Positions 14,045 to 52,963 of a stretch of 52,963 nt of DNA are shown here, in pieces; the stretch's first letter is position 1, and each line of letters starts with the position of its first letter. The notes under the pieces were generated by a model. It searched no databases and was not told the DNA's origin. It saw only the letters and a list, made by a program, of their open reading frames with translations. The stretch is from an uncultured Oscillospiraceae bacterium (GTDB taxonomy: Bacteria > Bacillota > Clostridia > Oscillospirales > Oscillospiraceae), in assembly GCA_947631805.1 (NCBI GenBank), contig CANRNA010000262.1, forward strand, positions 1 to 52,963. The letters are read 5' to 3'. Made by a program: the position numbers and the translations under genes.

Positions 14045-14137
14045 GGAGAAGTCGCGTAGCTTGGTCGAGCGCGCACGATTGGAAATCGTGTATACCCCAA
14101 AAGGGTATCGAGGGTTCGAATCCCTCCTTCTCCGCCA
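14045..14137 (+). tRNA. tRNA-Ser (anticodon GGA)
   Basis: Manual cloverleaf. Acceptor GGAGAAG/CTTCTCC. Anticodon stem CACGA/TCGTG with loop TTGGAAA (GGA at 14081-14083). Long variable arm. T arm GAGGG-TTCGAAT-CCCTC. Discriminator G plus an encoded CCA. Confidence 0.9.
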
Positions 14138-14205
14138 CTCAAAGCCTTGCAGCCCTAGAGTTGCAAGGCTTTGACATTTCTCCGACGGACCACATTTCGC
14201 CCTTC
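14075..14205 (+). repeat. attL core repeat (3' part of tRNA-Ser plus 68 bp downstream)
   Basis: 131 bp, identical to 48945-49074 except for one C indel (AGCCCTAGAG vs AGCCTAGAG). It starts inside the anticodon stem. Confidence 0.9.
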
Positions 14206-16799: not shown

Positions 16800-17699
16800 T
16801 CACACCAATGCGGTGAGCATGGCGGCCCAGGTTTTGGGCCCGACCGCCCCGTCCCACTGAGAGGGGTCGCCGGGGAAAAGCTGCCGCTGGATTTTAACCA
16901 CGGCGGCCTTGGTATTGGCGCCGTACTCACCATCGGCGGTTATGGGCTTACCGTCCGCGCCAGTGGCCCCCCGGGAGAAACATATCCGCTGCACGGTCTT
17001 TACTTCCGCCCCGGTGGAGCCCACCTGCAGGGCGTGGAGGGTGACGGTGCATTCCTCGCCCACGACGGGCGACGGGGCCGGGGCGGGCTCGCCGCCCGTG
17101 CCGCCGGTGGACGTCCCGGCGGTGTCGTACTTGGGATGACCGTACCCGGCGATGTAGGTGCTGGACTTGTTGTACACGTTGCGCTGCACCCTATCGGAGG
17201 CATTGCCCTCCACCACAGTCACCTGGTTGGCGCTCACCGCTACCACAATGCCCGTATGGACCAGTTCGCCGCCCTGCTGGAAAAAGACCTGGTCGCCCTC
17301 CTGGGGCTCCCGGTCATAGCGGCCCTGTGCCTTGTAGTAGCTGGCGCTGTACGGGCAGGCCGCTCCCAGCGTCCCTGTCTGGCACTCCACCAGCTGGCCC
17401 TCCGTCTTCCCGAAAGCCTTGAAGAAGCACCAGTCAACGAACACGTCACACCAGGCGTAGCCGTTTTTGTTGCCGTTGTAATACCCGGCGGCGTAGAGGT
17501 CCCGGGCGTACTTGGTCCAGTTGCCGCTCCCGGCGTTGGCCGTGGCAAGGTCCAGGTCCTTGTTGCTGGCCTTCTCCCGGTAGCCCACCTCCGCCAGCGC
17601 TATAGCGACCACCTTTGCCGCCAGCGCCGGGGACACTGCTACAATGGATGCTACCTCATCCGCGACGGCCTGCACCGCCGCCTTTGCCTCATCCGGCAT
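16800..17699 (-). CDS. endolysin: CHAP/NlpC-P60-type peptidase plus peptidoglycan-binding domain
   Basis: 299-aa ORF. Catalytic-type Cys context (NGYAWCDVFVDW) and His (LVHTGIVV). The C-terminal PG_binding_1-like repeat reads GSTGAEVKTVQ...DGEYGANTKAAVVKIQ. Confidence 0.8.
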   Translation of the reverse strand: MPDEAKAAVQAVADEVASIVAVSPALAAKVVAIALAEVGYREKASNKDLDLATANAGSGNWTKYARDLYAAGYYNGNKNGYAWCDVFVDWCFFKAFGKTEGQLVECQTGTLGAACPYSASYYKAQGRYDREPQEGDQVFFQQGGELVHTGIVVAVSANQVTVVEGNASDRVQRNVYNKSSTYIAGYGHPKYDTAGTSTGGTGGEPAPAPSPVVGEECTVTLHALQVGSTGAEVKTVQRICFSRGATGADGKPITADGEYGANTKAAVVKIQRQLFPGDPSQWDGAVGPKTWAAMLTALV

Positions 17700-17786: not shown

Positions 17787-18227
17787 TTAACCCTGGGTGA
17801 GCTGCTTGATAGCCTGGTGCAAACCGGTGGCCGCCAGGCCGCTGATAACACCACTCGCCAGGGCGTATATCAGGTTAGAGCCCTGGAAGCTGGGCATTAC
17901 ATAAAAGGCCGCAATCCCAACGGCGCCGCCCGCTGCCCCCACTATCACGGGGATGTATTTATTATCCAGGGGGCTTACTTTTACGGCCAAACCTACCAGC
18001 AGGCACAGGATGACGATTTCCGGGACCGTCTGCACGCCCATAAAGCTTTCTATCCCGCCGCCCTCATCCTCGGGGGCCGGGACGGTCTCAGCCGGTACGG
18101 TAGCAGCGGGGGTGTCGGTGGCCCCGGCGTCTTCCGGGCCCTCTTCCGCCCACACGGTGACGGACAAGGCACCGGCAAACGTGACGGCCAGGGCCAAAAT
18201 CATAAGCGCGATGATGATCTTTTTCAT
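17787..18227 (-). CDS. holin-like membrane protein with cleavable-looking signal peptide and acidic Pro/Ala-rich linker
   Basis: ATG 18227 (MKKIIIALMILALAV). The C-terminal half has two TM helices and a GLAATGLHQAIKQ motif resembling phiLC3-type holins. Confidence 0.55.
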   Translation of the reverse strand: MKKIIIALMILALAVTFAGALSVTVWAEEGPEDAGATDTPAATVPAETVPAPEDEGGGIESFMGVQTVPEIVILCLLVGLAVKVSPLDNKYIPVIVGAAGGAVGIAAFYVMPSFQGSNLIYALASGVISGLAATGLHQAIKQLTQG

Positions 18228-18255
18228 GGTTTTCTTTCCTTTCTGTTGTGTAAAA

Positions 18256-18693
18256 TTATTTGTCTTCGCCGTCTTTACCGGCGGCATTTGTTGTCAGGAT
18301 GTCTATGGCCTTTGTTATGGCCGCCGGGAGGGGCAGGCCCATTAACCCGGCGTTCTCCGTGATGCTTATGACCTCATTGGCCGTAAAGCCGATTATCACC
18401 CCATCCCGGATATAACTGGAGCCTATTGCCATATCCAGCCGGGCGGCGATGAGCACTATCAAGAGGGTCATGCCCTTGCGGCAAAGCCCCTTCCACCCGG
18501 CCCGGCTCTCCAGGGCCCCGTTGGCGCTCTTTTTCGAGGCGTGGAACACCCCGGCCACGATGAAGCCGGATATGTAATCCACGGCCATACAGATGAGCAG
18601 CGTCCCGGTGGCGGCATCCCATCCGCCGAACAGGGAGGCAATAAAGCCCCCTATGGCCCCGGCGGCGGTGCATACAGCGGTTTTTATCTCCAT
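18256..18693 (-). CDS. phage holin (LL-H / TcdE-like family)
   Basis: 145-aa ORF with 3-4 TM helices. Motifs MAVDYISGFIVAG and ENAGLMGLPLP are typical of Phage_holin_4_1. Confidence 0.75.
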   Translation of the reverse strand: MEIKTAVCTAAGAIGGFIASLFGGWDAATGTLLICMAVDYISGFIVAGVFHASKKSANGALESRAGWKGLCRKGMTLLIVLIAARLDMAIGSSYIRDGVIIGFTANEVISITENAGLMGLPLPAAITKAIDILTTNAAGKDGEDK

Positions 18694-19025: not shown

Positions 19026-19370
19026 TCAGCTCACCCCCAAATCGCCGTACATCGTCCCGGCTATCTCCAGCATGGCCGCCTCCAAGCCCTCCACCCTCTC
19101 CAGGATGGTAGGGGCCGGGTAGACCGGCGGGGGCACGGGCGGGTCGTCAAAGAGCTCGTCAAAGCGCTCAGATACTTCCCCGGCGGTGATGGCCGCCCGG
19201 AAATACACCTCATCCGCCGCCCAGACGGTCTCCGTCTCTCCCTCGGGGCCGCCCTGCTGCTCCACCTGCCGGATATTGCGCCTCAGCCACACGTCAGCCT
19301 CGGGCCTCCCCGGGAGCTGCATATATGTGACCGCTTGGGGCCTCGCGTTGTAATATGCCTCTGTTGTCAT
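19026..19370 (-). CDS. hypothetical phage protein
   Basis: 114-aa acidic ORF with RBS GGGAGG upstream of ATG 19370. Confidence 0.6.
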   Translation of the reverse strand: MTTEAYYNARPQAVTYMQLPGRPEADVWLRRNIRQVEQQGGPEGETETVWAADEVYFRAAITAGEVSERFDELFDDPPVPPPVYPAPTILERVEGLEAAMLEIAGTMYGDLGVS

Positions 19371-20608
19371 TGTGCTTACCTCCCTTTTTTGCCGCCTCAG
19401 ATATCACGGCGGCGCATTTTGCCCACACGGGTCCCATCCAGCGGATGACCCGGCGGGAGTCTGTGTGTCTGTACCGGCCTGCCCGGGCCGCTGCCCGGTG
19501 CTTTTGGCCCGGCGTGAAATAGCCCTTGTATGCCATTACCCGGCCCGCCAGTCCCGGCGATACCGGGCCGCGGGCCGCCCGCCTTGTTGCCCGGCGGGCG
19601 CGGAGAAATATCCTGGGCCGCACCGTCATGCGGCCGCTGTCGTGGATGACGTATCCCATGGTGTCAAGGGGCGTATCCTCCCATCTGTGGATGTGCCAGC
19701 CCTCTTTGACCTCCAGGCACAGCGTGTCGCCTATGTACCGGATGAGCATCCGCGCCGCCCTGAGCACGTCCCGCCGGTTGAAGCCGGTCAGGATGATGTC
19801 ATCCATGTGCGTGACGCAGCACGTCACCAGCGGCACGGGCTTGCCCCGGCGGGCCTTATGGAGGCCCGTCACATAGCGCCAGGCGAAGGACATAAGGTAC
19901 TGGCACGCCCTCTCGGATACCAGCGCCCCGATCAGCAGCCCCTTATTGCCGTCCACCCGGTGGCTGGCAAGCAAGGTCTCCCACAGCCACAAAATATCTG
20001 TGTTGCCACAGTCCCGGCGGAAAAGCTCCAAAAAGACCTCAAGCCGGGTCGAGCCGAAAGCACTGGCGGATATCCAGCTTTACATGGTACCGCATCCGCT
20101 TGGAGTACCGCTGTCCATGGGCGGCCGCCCACCGGGCCGCCCGGTTGTCCGCCTGCTTTTTGTCTCTGAGATAGTGGGCCCCGGCCACCGTGCCGTAGCC
20201 CTTGCGGCTGGAAAACTGTTGGTCAACTATCCGCCGCCTCCATATCTCCCCACACGACTTGTCCGCGATATGGTCATAGACCTGCTGCATGGCGCTCTCC
20301 CGGCCTATCTTGCGCAGTTTGCCGCTTGAGCCGTCCACGCGCTCTTTTATCCGGGGGCGGCTCAGTCTCAGGTCCCGGCGGGAGATACCCTGCGTGGCCG
20401 CTATGGCTATGCGCATGGAGGGCCCGTCGAAGGGCTCGTCCAGGTTCTCCCGCATGGCCCGGTAGTATTCCGCCGGGTCCATCCCGCCCACGTTGATAAG
20501 CAGGCGGCGGAAGTCGTCCCTCTCTTTGTGCCGGTCTATGCACTCGCGGACCCAGGGATACACCGTTTTCGGGTCCCTTATGTTGATATGCTTACAGCTT
20601 CTTCTCAT
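19294..20608 (-). pseudogene. DGR-type reverse transcriptase, reading frame interrupted by a +1 shift near 20041-20079
   Basis: ORF 20039..20608 carries RT motifs 1-3 (GKLRKIGRESAMQQVYDHI, SSRKGYGTVAG, YHVKLDIRQCF). ORF 19294..20031 carries motifs 4-7 (LLIGALVSERACQYLMS, HMDDIILTG, LEVKEGW, MGYVIH). The second frame is open from 20079, so the two halves overlap. Confidence 0.75.
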
Positions 20609-20786
20609 TGCTGTTACTCCCTTTCTGGATAGCGCGGGACGTTCGTGCCCTCAGGACCTACCAGCCCCGCCGTGTTGCTATGCAATTTCGCCCGCAGGCC
20701 AGGGACGGCCCCAAACGGGGCCGCCTGCCGCTGTTTTCCGCGGCCGCCGTATAGCCCAATAAAAAATGATATCGCTTTATCCAGAT

Positions 20787-20892
20787 AGCCGCCGCAGGAT
20801 GTTCCAGTTCCCGTTCCCGAGGCCGTTGTTCACGTTGCCGCACGAGAGGCCCGCGTTCGTCACGCCGTTGTTCAGGTTCCCGAAGGCAAGGA
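20787..20892 (-). repeat. DGR template repeat (TR)
   Basis: 106 nt homologous to VR. It carries A (coding strand) at all 10 mismatch positions and nine AAC codons. Confidence 0.85.
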
Positions 20893-20948
20893 CGGAAAAG
20901 TTCCCGCGCTGGGCTATACGACCCTGTATCATGTTTGTAAGGTACTCA

Positions 20949-20986
20949 GGGGGCGCTGCCCCCTCTTGGCCGCTTTACGCGGCCAA
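20949..20986 (-). promoter_or_regulatory. two GC-rich hairpins just 3' of VR (target-recognition / terminator candidates)
   Basis: TTGGCCGC-5 nt-GCGGCCAA (20966-20986, with the stop codon in the loop) and GGGGGC-3 nt-GCCCCC (20949-20963). Confidence 0.4.
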
Positions 20987-22693
20987 TTCACCCCGGTTTC
21001 CGTTCGGCGAAAGCCGCCGCAGGATGCCCCAGTACCCGTTCCCGAGGCCGCCGTTCACGTTGCCGCACGAGAGGCCCGCGATCGGCACGCCGCTGCCCAG
21101 GTTCCCGAAGGCAAGGAACTCCCGCTCCGCCCGGGCCGCCCCCGCGCTCTGGTAGAGCGCGTCACGGGTCAGGGTGGTGGAGGAGCCGCCCACCATAACG
21201 GGGAACGTCACGCCCTGACGGTATCCCATCCGCTTGATATACTTCCATCCGGCGGCGCCGTCTTGCGGGCAGGCCACGCCGGACGCCTTGTATTTTGCGG
21301 TGATGGCGGTGGATTGATCTGCCGTCCGCGTCACGACCCAGGGCTCATAGGTGTACCCGGCGGCATCTGAGCCGGACAGGAGGATAATGGCGTCCCCCAA
21401 TACCTCATAGCCGCCCATCATGTACTCTATGCCCTGTAGCCTCGCCGGGTACTTGCCCGACGTGCAATTTACCGGGCTGCCGTCGTTTCCCTTTACCCCG
21501 TCCGTGGAGCCCGTAGGCCAGTGGAAAGAGCTTATCACGGTCACACCCTGGGTGGTCGTCGCCGTCCCGGCGGTGGTGTCAAAGGTATCCGCCGTGTCCA
21601 CGTATACGGCCGTATATTGGGTATTAGAAACGGTCACGGTCTCCACCTTGGTCACGATGGCCCCGGCCTGTGTGGTGATGGAGTACATGGCGGCCTGGCC
21701 GCGGTCCGCGTTGCCCGCGCTGTTGCCTATGAGCACGCCCATCCCCGGCGAGATGTTGGCCCCCTGGGCGGTTGTCACCAGCACCCGGCGCACGCCCGTC
21801 TCCCCCACCGCCGCCGGGTACTGCCAGTTGTTGGCGCTGCATCCGGCTATGAGGGTGTCCATGGTAAGAGAGGCGTATTTAATCCGCATCATGAGCTGGA
21901 GCCAGGTCAGGTCTACAACGGACATACCGCTATATTGTGCTCCATTCTTTTTGATGACACTTTGCGAGGTGTTGTGGCTCTGCCAGGCGGTGGGGATTAC
22001 CCCGGCGCAGGACGTGGCCTTGCCGTCCGCCGCGGTCCCGCTGGCGTACTTCGCCGCCAGCCGCCAGGGCCGGTGGCCGCCGCCGGGCCGGGCCGTCCCC
22101 CCCTCCATCTCAAGGGACGCGATAGGGGCGCCCGCGTGGGTGCAATAGCCCCACGTCTCCGTGGTGGCCGTCTCCGCGACATACATATAGCCGCCCATCT
22201 GCATGACGCCCACCAGCTTTGCAGGGTTGTGTCGCTCAAAGCCCGGCGTGATGCCGCATATCTGCGTTATGACCGGCTCCAGGGTGTCCCCGTCCACCTC
22301 CCAGTTGACATCCGTGGGGGCAAAAAACGGGCTGCCCGCATAGTCGTCCCGGTTCGCGGCGGTGTCGGTGCTGGGCGTACACTCCAGCTCCGCGTTGTCC
22401 CCGCCCTTTGTGCCGGTGGATACCTCAGACGTGGCCGGGAGGTAAAACTCGCTCCACCCGTGCCAGTCCGGCCGGGTGAGCTCATACCACTTATCACACA
22501 GGGCGGTGAGCTGCTTTGCATCCGCCTCCAGGGCCCCGTTGTCAACAAACCAGTCGTGCATAACACGCCGGTAGGTCTTCTCCGTCCCGTCCAGTTGGTA
22601 CAGCTCCCGGCCCATGGCCCCCCGTATCCCCTTCACCGCCGCCGTAAGCTCATCCATTTGCGCGGCGTTGGGTAAAATATTTCCGATGCTCAT
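20975..22693 (-). CDS. tail fibre / receptor-binding-like protein, DGR target
   Basis: 572-aa ORF with RBS AAGGAGGG. It sits after the BppU-like protein. The C-terminal ~35 codons form the VR, with the G/N/W-rich pattern of DGR variable regions. Confidence 0.8.
   Translation of the reverse strand: MSIGNILPNAAQMDELTAAVKGIRGAMGRELYQLDGTEKTYRRVMHDWFVDNGALEADAKQLTALCDKWYELTRPDWHGWSEFYLPATSEVSTGTKGGDNAELECTPSTDTAANRDDYAGSPFFAPTDVNWEVDGDTLEPVITQICGITPGFERHNPAKLVGVMQMGGYMYVAETATTETWGYCTHAGAPIASLEMEGGTARPGGGHRPWRLAAKYASGTAADGKATSCAGVIPTAWQSHNTSQSVIKKNGAQYSGMSVVDLTWLQLMMRIKYASLTMDTLIAGCSANNWQYPAAVGETGVRRVLVTTAQGANISPGMGVLIGNSAGNADRGQAAMYSITTQAGAIVTKVETVTVSNTQYTAVYVDTADTFDTTAGTATTTQGVTVISSFHWPTGSTDGVKGNDGSPVNCTSGKYPARLQGIEYMMGGYEVLGDAIILLSGSDAAGYTYEPWVVTRTADQSTAITAKYKASGVACPQDGAAGWKYIKRMGYRQGVTFPVMVGGSSTTLTRDALYQSAGAARAEREFLAFGNLGSGVPIAGLSCGNVNGGLGNGYWGILRRLSPNGNRGELAA
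21012..21117 (-). repeat. DGR variable repeat (VR)
   Basis: 106 nt inside the 3' end of the target CDS. The 10 differences from TR are all at TR adenines. Confidence 0.85.
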
Positions 22694-47749: not shown

Positions 47750-48847
47750 GTGGGCAGGGCAAAAAAACGGCACGATGGCCGCTACGTCGAAACGGTGACC
47801 GCTATACTACCCGGTGGCCGGAAAAAGAGAAAATTTTTTTATGGGGACACCGCTGCGGAGGCGCGGCGGAAAATGTTGGAGTACACAGGGGAGCTCAAGC
47901 GCGGCCGCCTGTTTGCCGTTGTGGCTGATGAGTGGTGGGAAAAGCACCAAAAAGCCGTAAAATACAATACTGTAGAGAGCTACCGGGCTCCGCTCAGAGA
48001 TGTCAAGGCACATTTTGGCGACTGGGCTATAGATGCAATCTTGCCTGCAGATATACAGGGTTTTATTTATGACTATGGCCTTCATGGCGCTGGGCTCAAG
48101 CCGCGGGCCCGCCACACTGTGGAGCTCAGGGTCAACGTGCTCTCCCTGATATTTAAGTATGCCCTAACTACCAGAGACGTCATCGTTTCCCCTGTGCAAG
48201 AAATAGAAATACCAGCAGAGTGTACCAGGGCCGTCAGGCTCCCGCCAGATAAAAGCATCATGGCAGCCATAGAGCAAAACGCTGGCGATAATTTTACTCT
48301 CTATCCCGCTGTACTGCTATTTACGGGGATGCGCCGGTGTGAGGCACTTGGGCTTACTTGGGAGGATATTGACTGGGACGGCCGCCGGATTTATATGCGG
48401 CGGATGATAGAGTTTCACGGTAATGCGCCGGTGGTCCGTGAGTATTCGGCCAAATCCGCCGCCGGGGTGCGGTCTGTCCCGCTCATGCGAAAATTGCTCA
48501 AGATCATGGCCCCCCGCCGTGGGACTGGGCTAATATTCCCCGGCAAAAATGGGGTTATGACTAAGGGCGAGTACTGCGAGGCGTGGAGACGGCTAAATTT
48601 GGGCGTCACCGCCCACCAGCTCCGCCACGCCTATGCAGGGAAGATGCACGACGCCGGGCTGGACGTCCTATCCTCCAAAGTCATCCTGGGCGTCAGCAGC
48701 ACCAGCGTGGCACAAGATATTTACACCCACATTGACGAGAGCCGTGCCGGGGATGAGGCCCGCGGGAAGCTGGATGCTGCTGAGACCCCTAAAAAGACGC
48801 GAGTGCGCATTAGTGGACACTATCGCGGTAGGCGTGGGCCCTTATAA
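47750..48847 (+). CDS. int: tyrosine-type site-specific integrase
   Basis: 365-aa ORF with a GTG start after GGGGG. Catalytic-domain motifs are GMRRCEALGL, HQLRHAYAG and VAQDIYTHI. It is adjacent to the right att repeat. Confidence 0.9.
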   Translation: MGRAKKRHDGRYVETVTAILPGGRKKRKFFYGDTAAEARRKMLEYTGELKRGRLFAVVADEWWEKHQKAVKYNTVESYRAPLRDVKAHFGDWAIDAILPADIQGFIYDYGLHGAGLKPRARHTVELRVNVLSLIFKYALTTRDVIVSPVQEIEIPAECTRAVRLPPDKSIMAAIEQNAGDNFTLYPAVLLFTGMRRCEALGLTWEDIDWDGRRIYMRRMIEFHGNAPVVREYSAKSAAGVRSVPLMRKLLKIMAPRRGTGLIFPGKNGVMTKGEYCEAWRRLNLGVTAHQLRHAYAGKMHDAGLDVLSSKVILGVSSTSVAQDIYTHIDESRAGDEARGKLDAAETPKKTRVRISGHYRGRRGPL

Positions 48848-48944: not shown

Positions 48945-49074
48945 ACGATTGGAAATCGTGTATACCCCAAAAGGGTATCGAGGGTTCGAATCCCTCCTTC
49001 TCCGCCACTCAAAGCCTTGCAGCCTAGAGTTGCAAGGCTTTGACATTTCTCCGACGGACCACATTTCGCCCTTC
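48945..49074 (+). repeat. attR core repeat (partial 3' tRNA-Ser copy plus downstream hairpin)
   Basis: 130 bp matching 14075-14205. It lacks the tRNA 5' half. Confidence 0.9.
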
Positions 49075-50175: not shown

Positions 50176-50361
50176 AGGCAACCCTCCCTTCTGGAGGGCA
50201 AGGTCCCTCCGTCATTCCATGGAACAACGTCAGGCTGACCTTCGCCAGCAGCACCAATGACAGGATAGCATACTATTGCCAGAAATGCAACAATAGCCCT
50301 TCGTTTACGTCGGAATTTGTATTCCGTCTATGCAGAAGCGCTATGTTATTCCGCAGCCAAC

Positions 50362-50389
50362 AAAAAATGCCCCCGGCGGAGCCGGGGGC
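50362..50389 (-). terminator. rho-independent terminator of the surface-protein gene
   Basis: Minus strand GCCCCCGGC-TCC-GCCGGGGGC followed by ATTTTTT, about 35 nt after the stop at 50422. Confidence 0.7.
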
Positions 50390-50421
50390 AAAAGGTTTAT
50401 TGGGGTTTCAGGAAATCTAGC

Positions 50422-52963
50422 TTACAGATTGCCCCACTCGGTGGTGTAGGTGCACTCACCGAAGTGGCCGTTATGCTTGGTCTGGAACCAACCCCAGTTG
50501 GTCTGGCCCCCACGGGTCTCGCCGATGACGATCCAACCACTCTGAGCAGCACCAACAGTAGCACCGCCGGGGGTGAAGTAGAAGTACTTCGCGCCGACCT
50601 TCTGGAAGCCAGTGTACATCACACCGTCAGCACCCAGATAGTACCACAGGCCCTTCGCGGACATGACCCACTGGCTGGTGAGCATGGTGCCATTCTGATA
50701 GTAGTACCAGTTAGGACCACTGTGTACCCAGCCGGAACCGCCAGCAGGAGCGCCAGGGCCCTGAGGCTTGGTCTCAACAGTCAGAGCATTCAGAGCAGCC
50801 TGCAGAGCATCAGCAGCAGCCTTAACCTCGGACTTGAGAGCGCCCTTCTTGTTCAGGACTTCCTTAGCCTTAGCGGCGGCAGCCTCAACAGCGGCCTTGG
50901 ACTCCGCAGTGAAGTTATCCTTCGCCAGAGCAGCGGGGACAGAGTCAACCAAAGCCTTCAGAGCGGAGGTGTCAGGAGCCACAGCGGCAAGGTCCTTGAT
51001 AGCATCGCGGATAGCCTTCGCAGCGTCAGCAATAGCCTTTGCATCAGCCTTACTGTCGGTGACAGCAGACTTCTTGACCAGCTTGCCAGCAGCAACAGCG
51101 GCCTCAAGATCAGCCCAGCTAGCAGCAGTGTAGTCGTCCTCAACCAGAGCCGCAGCCTCAGCAATAGCGGCATCAAGGTCAGACTGATCAGCGGCAGAAG
51201 TCAGCAGAGCCAGAGCGGCAGTCAAATTCTTCAGAGCATCGTCTACCTTCTTCTGGTTCGCGGTAGTGTTGGGAGTAGTAGCAGAAGCGGCAACAATGGC
51301 GTTGGCAACCTTCAGGTTGTTGGCAACGATCTGGCGAGCATCAGCAGTGCTGTGCGCCTTAGGATCCGCAGAGACAAGGTTCTCATAGCCGTCGGCAGCG
51401 TCAACGGCCTCCAGCAGGCAATCGTAGCCAGCGGTGCCATAGGGGTGAGCCTTATCGACTTCGCTAGTGGCAACATCGATATAGGTCTCAATGGACTTGA
51501 CCTCGATAGTCACAGTCTGACGCTCTTTCCACTCAAGGACATTGGCAGGAGTCTTTTCCCTGACAGACAGCTTCACAGTGTAGGTACCGACCTGAACAGT
51601 AGATTCGGTCCAGGAAGTAGTCAGTGCGGTGGTACTGAGAGAAACTGTGTGCTTCGTACCGTCGGGACGGGTTACCTCGACCCGTGCAGCGGTGTAGCCA
51701 TCAGAGGGCAATTTGTTAAGAGTGACATAGAACTGACCCTCATCTACGATTGCCGGACCATTATAATTGGTATTGATGGTGACGGTGATAGTATCGATGA
51801 CCTTCCCATTATTGTCATCATACAGCGTAAACGTGATCTGATCCCCATTCTTGAACGCACTGCTCTGGTCAAGCAAAGTGGAAGACTGAACAGTAATCTC
51901 AGTGCCAGCCGTAGAATAATCAACAGACGATGCTACGATTTCAGCAGTCCCACCGTTCAGAGATGCCTTTACCTTATAAGCATGAGCTTCATCAGGCTTA
52001 CCACTCGCGGTAACCGTAACCGTCACAGACTTATAATCAGCAGCAATCTTATAAGAGGTAAACTTGAAGCTGTAGACATTTTCCTTAGCGGCAGCAGTGG
52101 CAGCCTTCAGGCGGTCAATCAAGCTATTAACCTGCGTAAGAGTAGCAGTGTTTGTGAGACCATTAGCCTGCAGGGGGTCATAGTAATTATCCTCTGCCTC
52201 AGCAATACGATCCTTAAGCTCCTGTTTGTACTCATTGACTGTCTTAGCAAGCGCGGCCTTAGCGGCGGCGACAGCAGCATCCAAACGGTCCTTATCGGCA
52301 GAAGTGGGCTTTTGGTTGGGCTGCAGAACATCACCCGGGGCAGGAGTAAGCCACTTAGCCTCGAGGGCATCATAAGCCTCGATAGCAGCAATGACACTCA
52401 CATACTTATAGCCGCCATTGTAAGCAGCGAGGAACTGATCTACCAGCGCGGCAACATCAGTCACATAACCAGGCTGATACTGTTTCTGATTTTCAGGAAG
52501 AGCAGCATCACCCTTCAGGCTGTTATACTTACCCTCAATAAAGGTCTTGAAGCTGGCGTCAGTAGCTACGTCCGCGATGCCATTGCGTGCATAAGTCAGA
52601 GCTTCAGCAACAGTAGCCGGATCAGTCTCACCATCCCAGTAGCCGCCATTGATGCTGGCCATCAAATCAGTTGCAGCCTTGAGAGCTTTAAGGAAGGAGT
52701 TGACCTGCGTATCAGGATCACCGTCACGCCACTTTGTGAGCGTATAGGCTCCACCAACATACTTGCCAGCCTTGACGTCAGCCTCAATAAGCTGATTCTT
52801 GGTGATGGCAGCCTGCAGGTCTGCAACCTTACCTTTGTCAGGTGCGGCCGCAATCTCGACGGGCTCGTCAGCCGCAACGGGCGCTACCTCGGCCTCGGGT
52901 TCCGTTGCGACAGCTTCGACTTCGTTCACTTCCGCGGCAGGCTCTTGCTCGTTGTCGTCAGCC
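50422..52963 (-). CDS. large surface protein with C-terminal cell-wall-binding repeats (5' end outside the window)
   Basis: The frame stays open to the window edge upstream of M at 52929. The N-terminal region is Ala/Lys/Asp-rich and helical. The centre is beta-rich. The C-terminus has GW/YY repeats (WVHSGPNWYYYQNG, GLWYYLGADGVMYTGF, AKYFYFTPGG). Confidence 0.8.
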   Translation of the reverse strand, partial: ADDNEQEPAAEVNEVEAVATEPEAEVAPVAADEPVEIAAAPDKGKVADLQAAITKNQLIEADVKAGKYVGGAYTLTKWRDGDPDTQVNSFLKALKAATDLMASINGGYWDGETDPATVAEALTYARNGIADVATDASFKTFIEGKYNSLKGDAALPENQKQYQPGYVTDVAALVDQFLAAYNGGYKYVSVIAAIEAYDALEAKWLTPAPGDVLQPNQKPTSADKDRLDAAVAAAKAALAKTVNEYKQELKDRIAEAEDNYYDPLQANGLTNTATLTQVNSLIDRLKAATAAAKENVYSFKFTSYKIAADYKSVTVTVTASGKPDEAHAYKVKASLNGGTAEIVASSVDYSTAGTEITVQSSTLLDQSSAFKNGDQITFTLYDDNNGKVIDTITVTINTNYNGPAIVDEGQFYVTLNKLPSDGYTAARVEVTRPDGTKHTVSLSTTALTTSWTESTVQVGTYTVKLSVREKTPANVLEWKERQTVTIEVKSIETYIDVATSEVDKAHPYGTAGYDCLLEAVDAADGYENLVSADPKAHSTADARQIVANNLKVANAIVAASATTPNTTANQKKVDDALKNLTAALALLTSAADQSDLDAAIAEAAALVEDDYTAASWADLEAAVAAGKLVKKSAVTDSKADAKAIADAAKAIRDAIKDLAAVAPDTSALKALVDSVPAALAKDNFTAESKAAVEAAAAKAKEVLNKKGALKSEVKAAADALQAALNALTVETKPQGPGAPAGGSGWVHSGPNWYYYQNGTMLTSQWVMSAKGLWYYLGADGVMYTGFQKVGAKYFYFTPGGATVGAAQSGWIVIGETRGGQTNWGWFQTKHNGHFGECTYTTEWGNL

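Follow-up and report, generated by a model that had tools for sequence, protein, structure and literature searches.

Diversity-generating retroelements (DGRs) are documented on tail proteins of prophages of high-GC gut Clostridia (PMC11792537), as are DGR layouts that lack the accessory gene avd (PMC5758913). Of 372 DGRs, 29% have the accessory-free Architecture A, and avd is missing from one lineage (PMC5758913); Avd-independent retrohoming has been proposed for such accessory-free elements (Wu et al. 2018, PMC5758913). An RNA structure termed cPRT Stop is reported to be predicted for 207 DGRs that contain Avd (10.1101/2023.10.23.563531), and some DGR copies of Faecalibacterium phages have no detectable activity (PMC11792537). 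Here we describe a DGR on contig CANRNA010000262.1 of an uncultured Oscillospiraceae bacterium (GenBank assembly GCA_947631805.1); the whole stretch of DNA analysed, 52,963 nt, is referred to as the window. An earlier note on this DNA, made from its letters alone, had proposed a DGR acting on the C-terminal end of a tail-fibre-type protein encoded by a prophage. This is borne out by the pattern of differences between the template repeat (TR) and the variable repeat (VR), by the adjacent reverse transcriptase (RT), by the fold of the target and by the genomic context. The analysis also indicates that the element has worked in the past of this strain and has probably been disabled recently through damage to its RT gene.

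The cassette is arranged in the order target gene with VR, TR, structured spacer RNA and RT. The gap between VR and TR is 116 nt and that between TR and RT about 175 nt; neither holds an open reading frame (ORF). Its protein-coding and repeat features are as follows.

20975 to 22693, minus strand: DGR target gene, encoding a 572-aa protein of tail-fibre / receptor-binding type with VR near its C-terminus.
21009 to 21117, minus strand: VR, 109 nt, in frame and without a stop codon; each of its 11 differences from TR lies at a TR adenine.
20784 to 20892, minus strand: TR, 109 nt, with 23 A, 20 of these in 10 AAC codons.
20039 to 20608, minus strand: 5′ part of the RT gene, 189 aa; N-terminal helical extension and fingers, stopping at a premature TGA.
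19294 to 20031, minus strand: 3′ part of the RT gene, 245 aa, in the +1 frame; IGALVSE motif, palm with HMDD at 19798 to 19809, thumb and C-terminal helix.
20057 to 20059, minus strand: frameshift lesion, TTT where the frame needs TT, that is one extra T.

TR (20784 to 20892) and VR (21009 to 21117) form a direct repeat on the minus strand with an offset of 225. The earlier note had described this repeat, at 225-bp spacing, as two 106-nt copies (TR 20787 to 20892, VR 21012 to 21117) with exactly 10 differences. Realignment reproduced the spacing, the strand, the count and the plus-strand position that it had given for each difference. Every one of the 10 core mismatches has A in TR; the remaining 12 TR adenines and all 84 non-A positions are unchanged between the two copies. 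Nine mismatches fall in AAC codons and one in an ACG codon, and this assignment, together with the translations of TR and VR, was correct on recheck. The chance of 10 out of 10 mismatches falling on 22 A among 106 bases is P = 2e-8. The homology extends 3 nt beyond the core, to TR 20784 and VR 21009, and this extension contains the single difference that the note did not list: TR 20786 is A and VR 21011 is T, a synonymous change (CTA to CTT). Over the full 109-nt repeat all 11 mismatches therefore sit on the 23 TR adenines (P = 3.5e-9). No mismatch at a non-adenine TR position, the pattern named in the note as telling against a DGR, was seen in the 109-nt alignment. The variable codons of TR (10 AAC, ACG and ATC) give a theoretical repertoire of about 9e12 peptides; mutagenesis of TR adenines cannot create a stop codon. 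VR corresponds to residues 526 to 562 of the target. No second VR, remote target or further TR copy was found in the 52,963-nt window. Since VR differs from TR at 11 adenines, the DGR ran in the past of this strain.

The RT is recognisable only once both frames are fused. Pfam RVT_1 gave no match to either piece or to the conceptually fused protein, and NCBIfam gave only a weak match to a group II RT (E = 0.04); the identification therefore relies on structure, on homologues and on PHROGs. With its frames joined, the protein matches PHROG 1423 “Reverse transcriptase” with E = 6e-33 over residues 8 to 391, spanning the junction. Homologues numbered 76, and those listed are mostly single proteins of about 350 to 520 aa, nearly all with RVT_1. 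When the family profile was compared with PDB sequences, the best match was bRT, the RT of the BPP-1 DGR (8ub7_A, E = 3e-10), above group II intron and retron RTs. For the closest intact homologue, the AlphaFold2 (AF2) model (pLDDT 93.5) likewise finds its best fold match in that bRT chain, with a TM-score (TM) of 0.78. Conserved in the RT architecture are an N-terminal extension of four helices and one extra helix at the C-terminus. The I/LGxxxSQ motif of the family carries Q in 48 homologues and E in 13, the window copy reading IGALVSE. Taken together, these results support an adjacent RT of the DGR clade. The proposal that an RT lies directly downstream of TR thus stands as regards its DGR-type ancestry; what does not stand is a single gene at 19294 to 20608, which comprises two ORFs in different frames. 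Nor did the RVT_1 profile search suggested for that interval succeed on the window ORFs, which came out blank; it is the intact homologues, of about 410 aa, that carry RVT_1.

No Pfam Avd family (PF05635) was matched among the flanking genes or the 22 small ORFs of the prophage, and an avd gene next to TR, as in the canonical BPP-1-type Architecture B, was not found. The N-terminal extension of the RT was considered as a fused Avd and this found no support, its profile finding among PDB sequences nothing better than an unrelated protein at E = 0.73. We note that a 114-aa acidic ORF (19026 to 19370, minus strand; PHROG 37768, function unknown) overlaps the C-terminal tail of the RT by 77 nt. 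It has no Pfam match and is not Avd-like. An ORF of 113 aa is also found 3′ of the RT in a related locus, L004.

At the lesion the window DNA reads TGC TTT CGG CTC, where the frame requires TGC TTC GGC TCG. In the protein alignment over the junction, the window has KLDIRQCF in the first frame followed by GSTRLEVF in the second, against KLDIKKCYASLRVDRF in the closest relative, and the alignment crosses between the frames precisely at the extra T. The same split was seen in three other assemblies of the strain, from different samples (ENA contigs L001 to L003). These are 99.97% identical to the window, excepting a 31-nt deletion in L002, and other single-position differences exist. When 109 loci were searched by tblastn, the RT was in two frames in 3 (L001 to L003) and in a single frame in 105; one gave no match. 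Because the lesion is present in L001 to L003 and absent from the 105 loci, it appears to be real and specific to the strain, and not a conserved recoding site. Programmed frameshifting as a feature of the family was rejected, none of the 105 relatives being split.

The insertion truncates the RT ahead of the palm domain, and the window copy has no intact, expressible RT ORF. The catalytic box is HMDD (CAC at 19807 to 19809) instead of Y/FMDD; its first residue in 61 homologues is F (34), Y (25) or Q (2). VR is identical across all four assemblies of the strain, and no VR variants were found in the protein cluster. Elsewhere the RT departs from 6 of 83 highly conserved columns, all conservatively, a number comparable with the 8 of 85 of the intact relative P0001; with so few other departures, the damage is taken to be recent. 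It is therefore probable that the DGR of this strain was recently inactivated, leaving a frozen VR. As judged from the sequence, with the RT truncated before the palm, the element is now most likely off. The present-tense claim of the earlier note, that the element would diversify the receptor-binding tip, is not supported for this strain in view of the frameshift, the HMDD box and the one VR in four assemblies. Rescue of the window DGR would need rare +1 slippage or an RT in trans.

Some observations weigh against recent inactivation. Apart from the insertion the RT looks healthy, with both halves free of further stops; this fits a very recent loss but fits continued use as well. At UUU-C, tRNA-Phe could slip by +1 and still pair perfectly. 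If the four assemblies stem from one cohort or host lineage, as they may, the identical VR would be weak evidence of inactivity. Gln in the catalytic box is tolerated by two homologues, and the effect of HMDD is a predicted one. A rival explanation is that the DGR is fully active, as the note had assumed: either +1 ribosomal frameshifting at UUU-C yields the RT, perhaps as a throttle on mutagenesis, or the extra T is a sequence error shared by the assemblies. The otherwise intact and conserved RT halves and the perfect slip site are consistent with this, as is the integrity of the cis elements described below (helix P1, the spacer core and the VR hairpin). We nevertheless consider it unlikely. 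The shift is absent from all 105 relatives, which argues against a conserved recoding site. The slip site is followed by CGG, which is the most frequent Arg codon of the prophage and therefore provides no pause signal in the form of a slow A-site codon. Reading the sequence upstream of the slip site by eye revealed no Shine-Dalgarno-like stimulator. As to an error, short-read data do not tend to go wrong at a run of three T, and the extra T is present in four assemblies that differ elsewhere. The invariance of VR in the four copies also speaks against an active element.

The target protein matches PHROG 17147 with E = 6e-120. No Pfam domain was found in it, and its profile had no match among PDB sequences. 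At the level of fold, the only significant PDB matches of an AF2 model of the full-length protein (pLDDT 92) are chains of TaqVP (5vf4; E = 1.6e-5, prob 1.0), a DGR variable protein with a C-type-lectin fold (CLec), and Mtd appeared at rank 16, not significant. Many gut-phage ‘tail collar fiber’ proteins match among the predicted viral structures of BFVD. The gene is placed immediately after the BppU_N and Tal genes. A C-type-lectin fold had been expected at the C-terminus of the target; TaqVP as the sole significant fold match agrees with this, the match having been obtained with a model of the whole target. The model supports a target with a variable-protein fold and VR at its C-terminus. 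One further observation concerns the target gene in L002 (ENA ERZ27249596), which belongs to the same strain. It has a 31-nt deletion (window 22025 to 22056; L002:795) that breaks the target into ORFs of 221 and 316 aa. Either the prophage is decaying further within the population, or the deletion is an assembly error at low coverage (about 2x).

Around and downstream of TR, the following RNA and DNA elements were located.

20966 to 20986, minus strand: post-VR hairpin, TTGGCCGC-GTAAA-GCGGCCAA, 8 bp, 22 nt after the end of VR, with the stop codon in its loop.
20948 to 20964, minus strand: second hairpin, AGGGGGC-AGC-GCCCCCT, just after the post-VR hairpin; a terminator-like stem without a U tract.
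20911 to 20924, minus strand: 5′ strand of helix P1, GGGTCGTATAGCCC, closing TR.
20746 to 20757, minus strand: 3′ strand of helix P1, GGGCTATACGGC.
20704 to 20744, minus strand: two spacer hairpins directly after P1, namely GCCGC-GGAAAACA-GCGGC at 20727 to 20744 and GGCGGCCCC-GTTT-GGGGCCGTC at 20704 to 20725.
20621 to 20705, minus strand: conserved spacer RNA core upstream of the RT, RT-17-like.

Of the 31 family loci examined, 11 have a hairpin of 7 to 10 bp at 21 to 27 nt after VR; the stems differ among them, with compensatory changes. The BPP-1 DGR reportedly has a hairpin/cruciform element at its target site, and by analogy the hairpin at 20966 to 20986 is a candidate target-recognition element. 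The second hairpin also has counterparts, since an AGGGG..CCCCT hairpin recurs 40 to 56 nt after VR in many family loci. Helix P1 shows changes on both sides in all 8 aligned pairs. Spacer helix 2 is 90% paired and has compensatory changes in 4 of its 5 pairs; for helix 3 the figures are 87% and 6 of 9. Spacer helices 4 and 5 are 98–100% paired. Invariant columns of the spacer core in the family alignment are CTGCGG..AAAAT, GGG..GTAG and GAAAG. Across 17 sequences the named structure as a whole is 92.4% paired, compared with 35–44% in the control in which the partners were slid. Changes on both sides were observed in 23 of 31 pairs, a level reached by none of 500 shuffles. P1 with its adjoining stem-loop resembles the cPRT-Stop of the BPP-1 DGR RNA.

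The spacer core aligns over its full length with the Rfam family RF03020 (RT-17) at 24.5 bits and E = 0.01. This is below the gathering score of 40.4, so that the window falls outside RT-17 RNA at the curated threshold; none of 13 relatives reached the gathering score either. The Rfam M23 RNA (RF03006) overlaps both spacer hairpins (20704 to 20749, minus strand) with only 18 bits (E = 0.39) where the gathering score is 41.2, a match that is probably due to chance. A scan for consensus promoters and terminators on the coding strand around TR found nothing. One match seen by eye, TTACAA-N16-TATAGC, was discounted as transcription would begin within P1. We also considered whether priming might start, as in BPP-1, from an adenosine located 3 nt ahead of the P1 3′ strand; this position is inconsistent across relatives and the idea was dropped.

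Relatives of the RT were found in 25 genome loci and 346 IMG/VR stretches (at least 346 matches in IMG/VR). The metagenome-assembled genomes (MAGs) that host them belong to Clostridia, Oscillospiraceae, Lachnospiraceae and Christensenellales. A simple detector applied to the fetched loci found the order VR, TR, RT in at least 70, with mismatches all or nearly all at adenine. The gap between VR and TR is 59 to 344 nt in the 31 loci examined, and thus leaves no room for avd. Two groups of near-identical IMG/VR phages share the same TR and have different VRs. In the first (g3: L087, L089, L090, L091, L092 and L101), TR is identical in all six loci and the 300-nt flank upstream shows no variation; among their 4 different VRs 23 columns vary, and 21 of these are at TR adenines. 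In the second (g4, L081 to L107), all 22 variable VR columns are at TR adenines. From these sequence comparisons, relatives with intact RTs appear visibly active in diversification. No match to the cassette was found by blastn against GenBank phages. Using the target and the closest intact RT homologue (P0001) in tblastn against the same set returned only unannotated uncultured faecal phages at no more than 32% identity, and no cultured representative of the family was found there.

With the family in hand, two further explanations for the window can be weighed. The TR RNA and VR might be served in trans by the intact family RT of another prophage in the same genome. Two separate RT loci of the family (L006 and L011) occur in a single MAG, Lapin-032__bin131, so DGR prophages can co-reside and trans-complementation is possible; moreover the spacer core, the part that the RT is expected to recognise, is strongly conserved across the family. 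Set against this, there is no second RT or VR in the 53 kb of genome at hand, in canonical DGRs the fit between an RT and the spacer RNA of its own element is a close one (10.1101/2023.10.23.563531), and VR is identical in the four assemblies. Service in trans is accordingly improbable for this strain. That the locus is no DGR at all, the repeat being a chance or duplication remnant beside an unrelated retroelement pseudogene (a group II intron or retron RT), would fit the window ORFs without a Pfam RVT_1 match and the weak NCBIfam group II hit (E = 0.04), but is effectively excluded by the adenine-only mismatches (P about 4e-9), by the same layout with adenine-biased mismatches in at least 70 loci, by VRs of relatives that vary at TR adenines, by bRT as the best match of the RT in both sequence and fold, and by a target whose fold matches a DGR variable protein. 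A genuine DGR that was recently switched off by the frameshift remains the reading that we prefer.

For the family we infer a mechanism without Avd, in which self-primed, adenine-mutagenic reverse transcription would be followed by replacement of VR. It is based on the canonical DGRs and supported by comparison of the family loci. The RNA over TR and the spacer would fold such that helix P1 closes off TR. The RT would bind the conserved spacer, self-prime and copy TR to cDNA, misreading adenines. The cDNA would then replace VR, the GC-rich 3′ end and the post-VR hairpin marking the target. In this way up to 12 residues (the 10 AAC codons, ACG and ATC) could be rewritten on a C-type-lectin-like receptor-binding tip. 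More tentatively, the window may belong to a large uncharacterised lineage of Avd-less gut-phage DGRs (at least 346 IMG/VR matches). In such a lineage the conserved additional helices of the RT (four in the N-terminal extension, one at the C-terminus), the RT-17-like spacer RNA and the TR-closing helix might together replace Avd, giving a minimal two-part machine of RT and RNA of which the window copy would be a natural ‘off’ allele. We regard this broader proposal as possible though doubtful.

The host element is a siphovirus-type prophage of about 35 kb, integrated at tRNA-Ser, with the following features at its ends.

14075 to 14205 and 48945 to 49074: attL/attR direct repeat, 131 nt, 99.2% identical.
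47750 to 48847: tyrosine integrase, adjoining attR.

The att repeat covers the 3′ half of tRNA-Ser(GGA) (14045 to 14137) and a downstream hairpin. Host genes on the contig include MgsA, FolD and a Mur ligase. The structural module comprises the major head protein, tail terminator, 197-aa major tail protein, tape measure, Dit, Tal and BppU_N; the DGR comes after BppU_N in the module and is followed by two holins and a CHAP endolysin. No tail sheath gene was seen among the proteins scanned. With att repeats, integrase, host flanks and a sheathless tail module, this is an integrated temperate siphovirus. The description in the note of a temperate siphovirus of a high-GC Clostridia host consequently holds, given the prophage ends, the tail module, a GC content of 59.7% and the MAGs of the relatives. 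The two holins are different and stand in tandem on the minus strand (Phage_holin_5_2 at 17787 to 18287 and Phage_holin_4_1 at 18256 to 18693), with the CHAP + PG_binding endolysin beyond them at 16800 to 17699. Outside the prophage, an ORF of more than 880 aa on the plus strand (50317 to 52963) runs off the right end of the contig.

At the level of the locus these results are mainly a correction of annotation: a receptor-binding tip was once diversified by a DGR whose RT is now broken, and plasticity of host range is therefore not to be assumed for the strain. The family is of wider interest. It is abundant in phages of animal-gut Clostridia, is without Avd and has a well-supported, conserved RNA architecture that the curated Rfam threshold misses. 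An intact member such as L004 would lend itself well to studies of mutagenic retrohoming without Avd, or to the construction of a more compact mutagenesis tool based on a DGR. Three aspects of the family are modestly new: an RNA architecture supported by covariation in a lineage without Avd; the conserved four-helix extension at the N-terminus of its RT, which shows no similarity to Avd in sequence; and a family with no cultured representative found in GenBank phages.

Compared with the BPP-1 DGR (mtd-VR / avd / TR / brt), the window shares adenine-specific transfer from TR to VR, a C-terminal tip of a receptor-binding protein as its target and AAC-rich coding. The BPP-1 RT is the best sequence and fold match of the window RT family, and both elements have a hairpin a short distance after VR. 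Unlike BPP-1, the window cassette has no avd, its RT gene is frameshifted and its target resembles Mtd weakly by fold (rank 16, not significant). The window RT is also about 90 to 110 aa longer, with the four-helix N-terminal extension and extra C-terminal helix, and is about 15% identical to bRT. In layout the element also parallels the accessory-gene-free ‘Architecture A1’ (TR-RT core; avd-lacking Lineage 3; PMC5758913), with which the window shares the order of target with VR, TR and RT and Firmicutes hosts; membership of Lineage 3 would be putative. The DGRs of the Faecalibacterium prophages Lagaffe, Mushu, Roos, Pioen and Lelie (PMC11792537) are also carried by temperate phages of gut Clostridia and aim TR, VR and RT at tail or surface proteins. 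No cultured Faecalibacterium phage was matched, however, in tblastn of GenBank phages with the window target or RT homologue P0001, and the targets of the five prophages are reported as DUF6273, Ig-like or Mtd-like (PMC11792537), whereas the window target has no Pfam domain. TaqVP of Thermus aquaticus (5vf4; PMC6328139) differs from the window target in sequence (12% identity), in a TM of 0.46 on the TaqVP length, and in that the window protein is 190 aa longer and phage-borne; the two are alike in being C-type-lectin-fold variable proteins, by model in the case of the window, with VR at the C-terminus. Finally, the spacer core scores under the gathering threshold of RF03020 RT-17, a motif upstream of RT genes, yet aligns with it from end to end and shares its CCU-GCC..GGC-AAA, CUGGUAG and CGAA elements.

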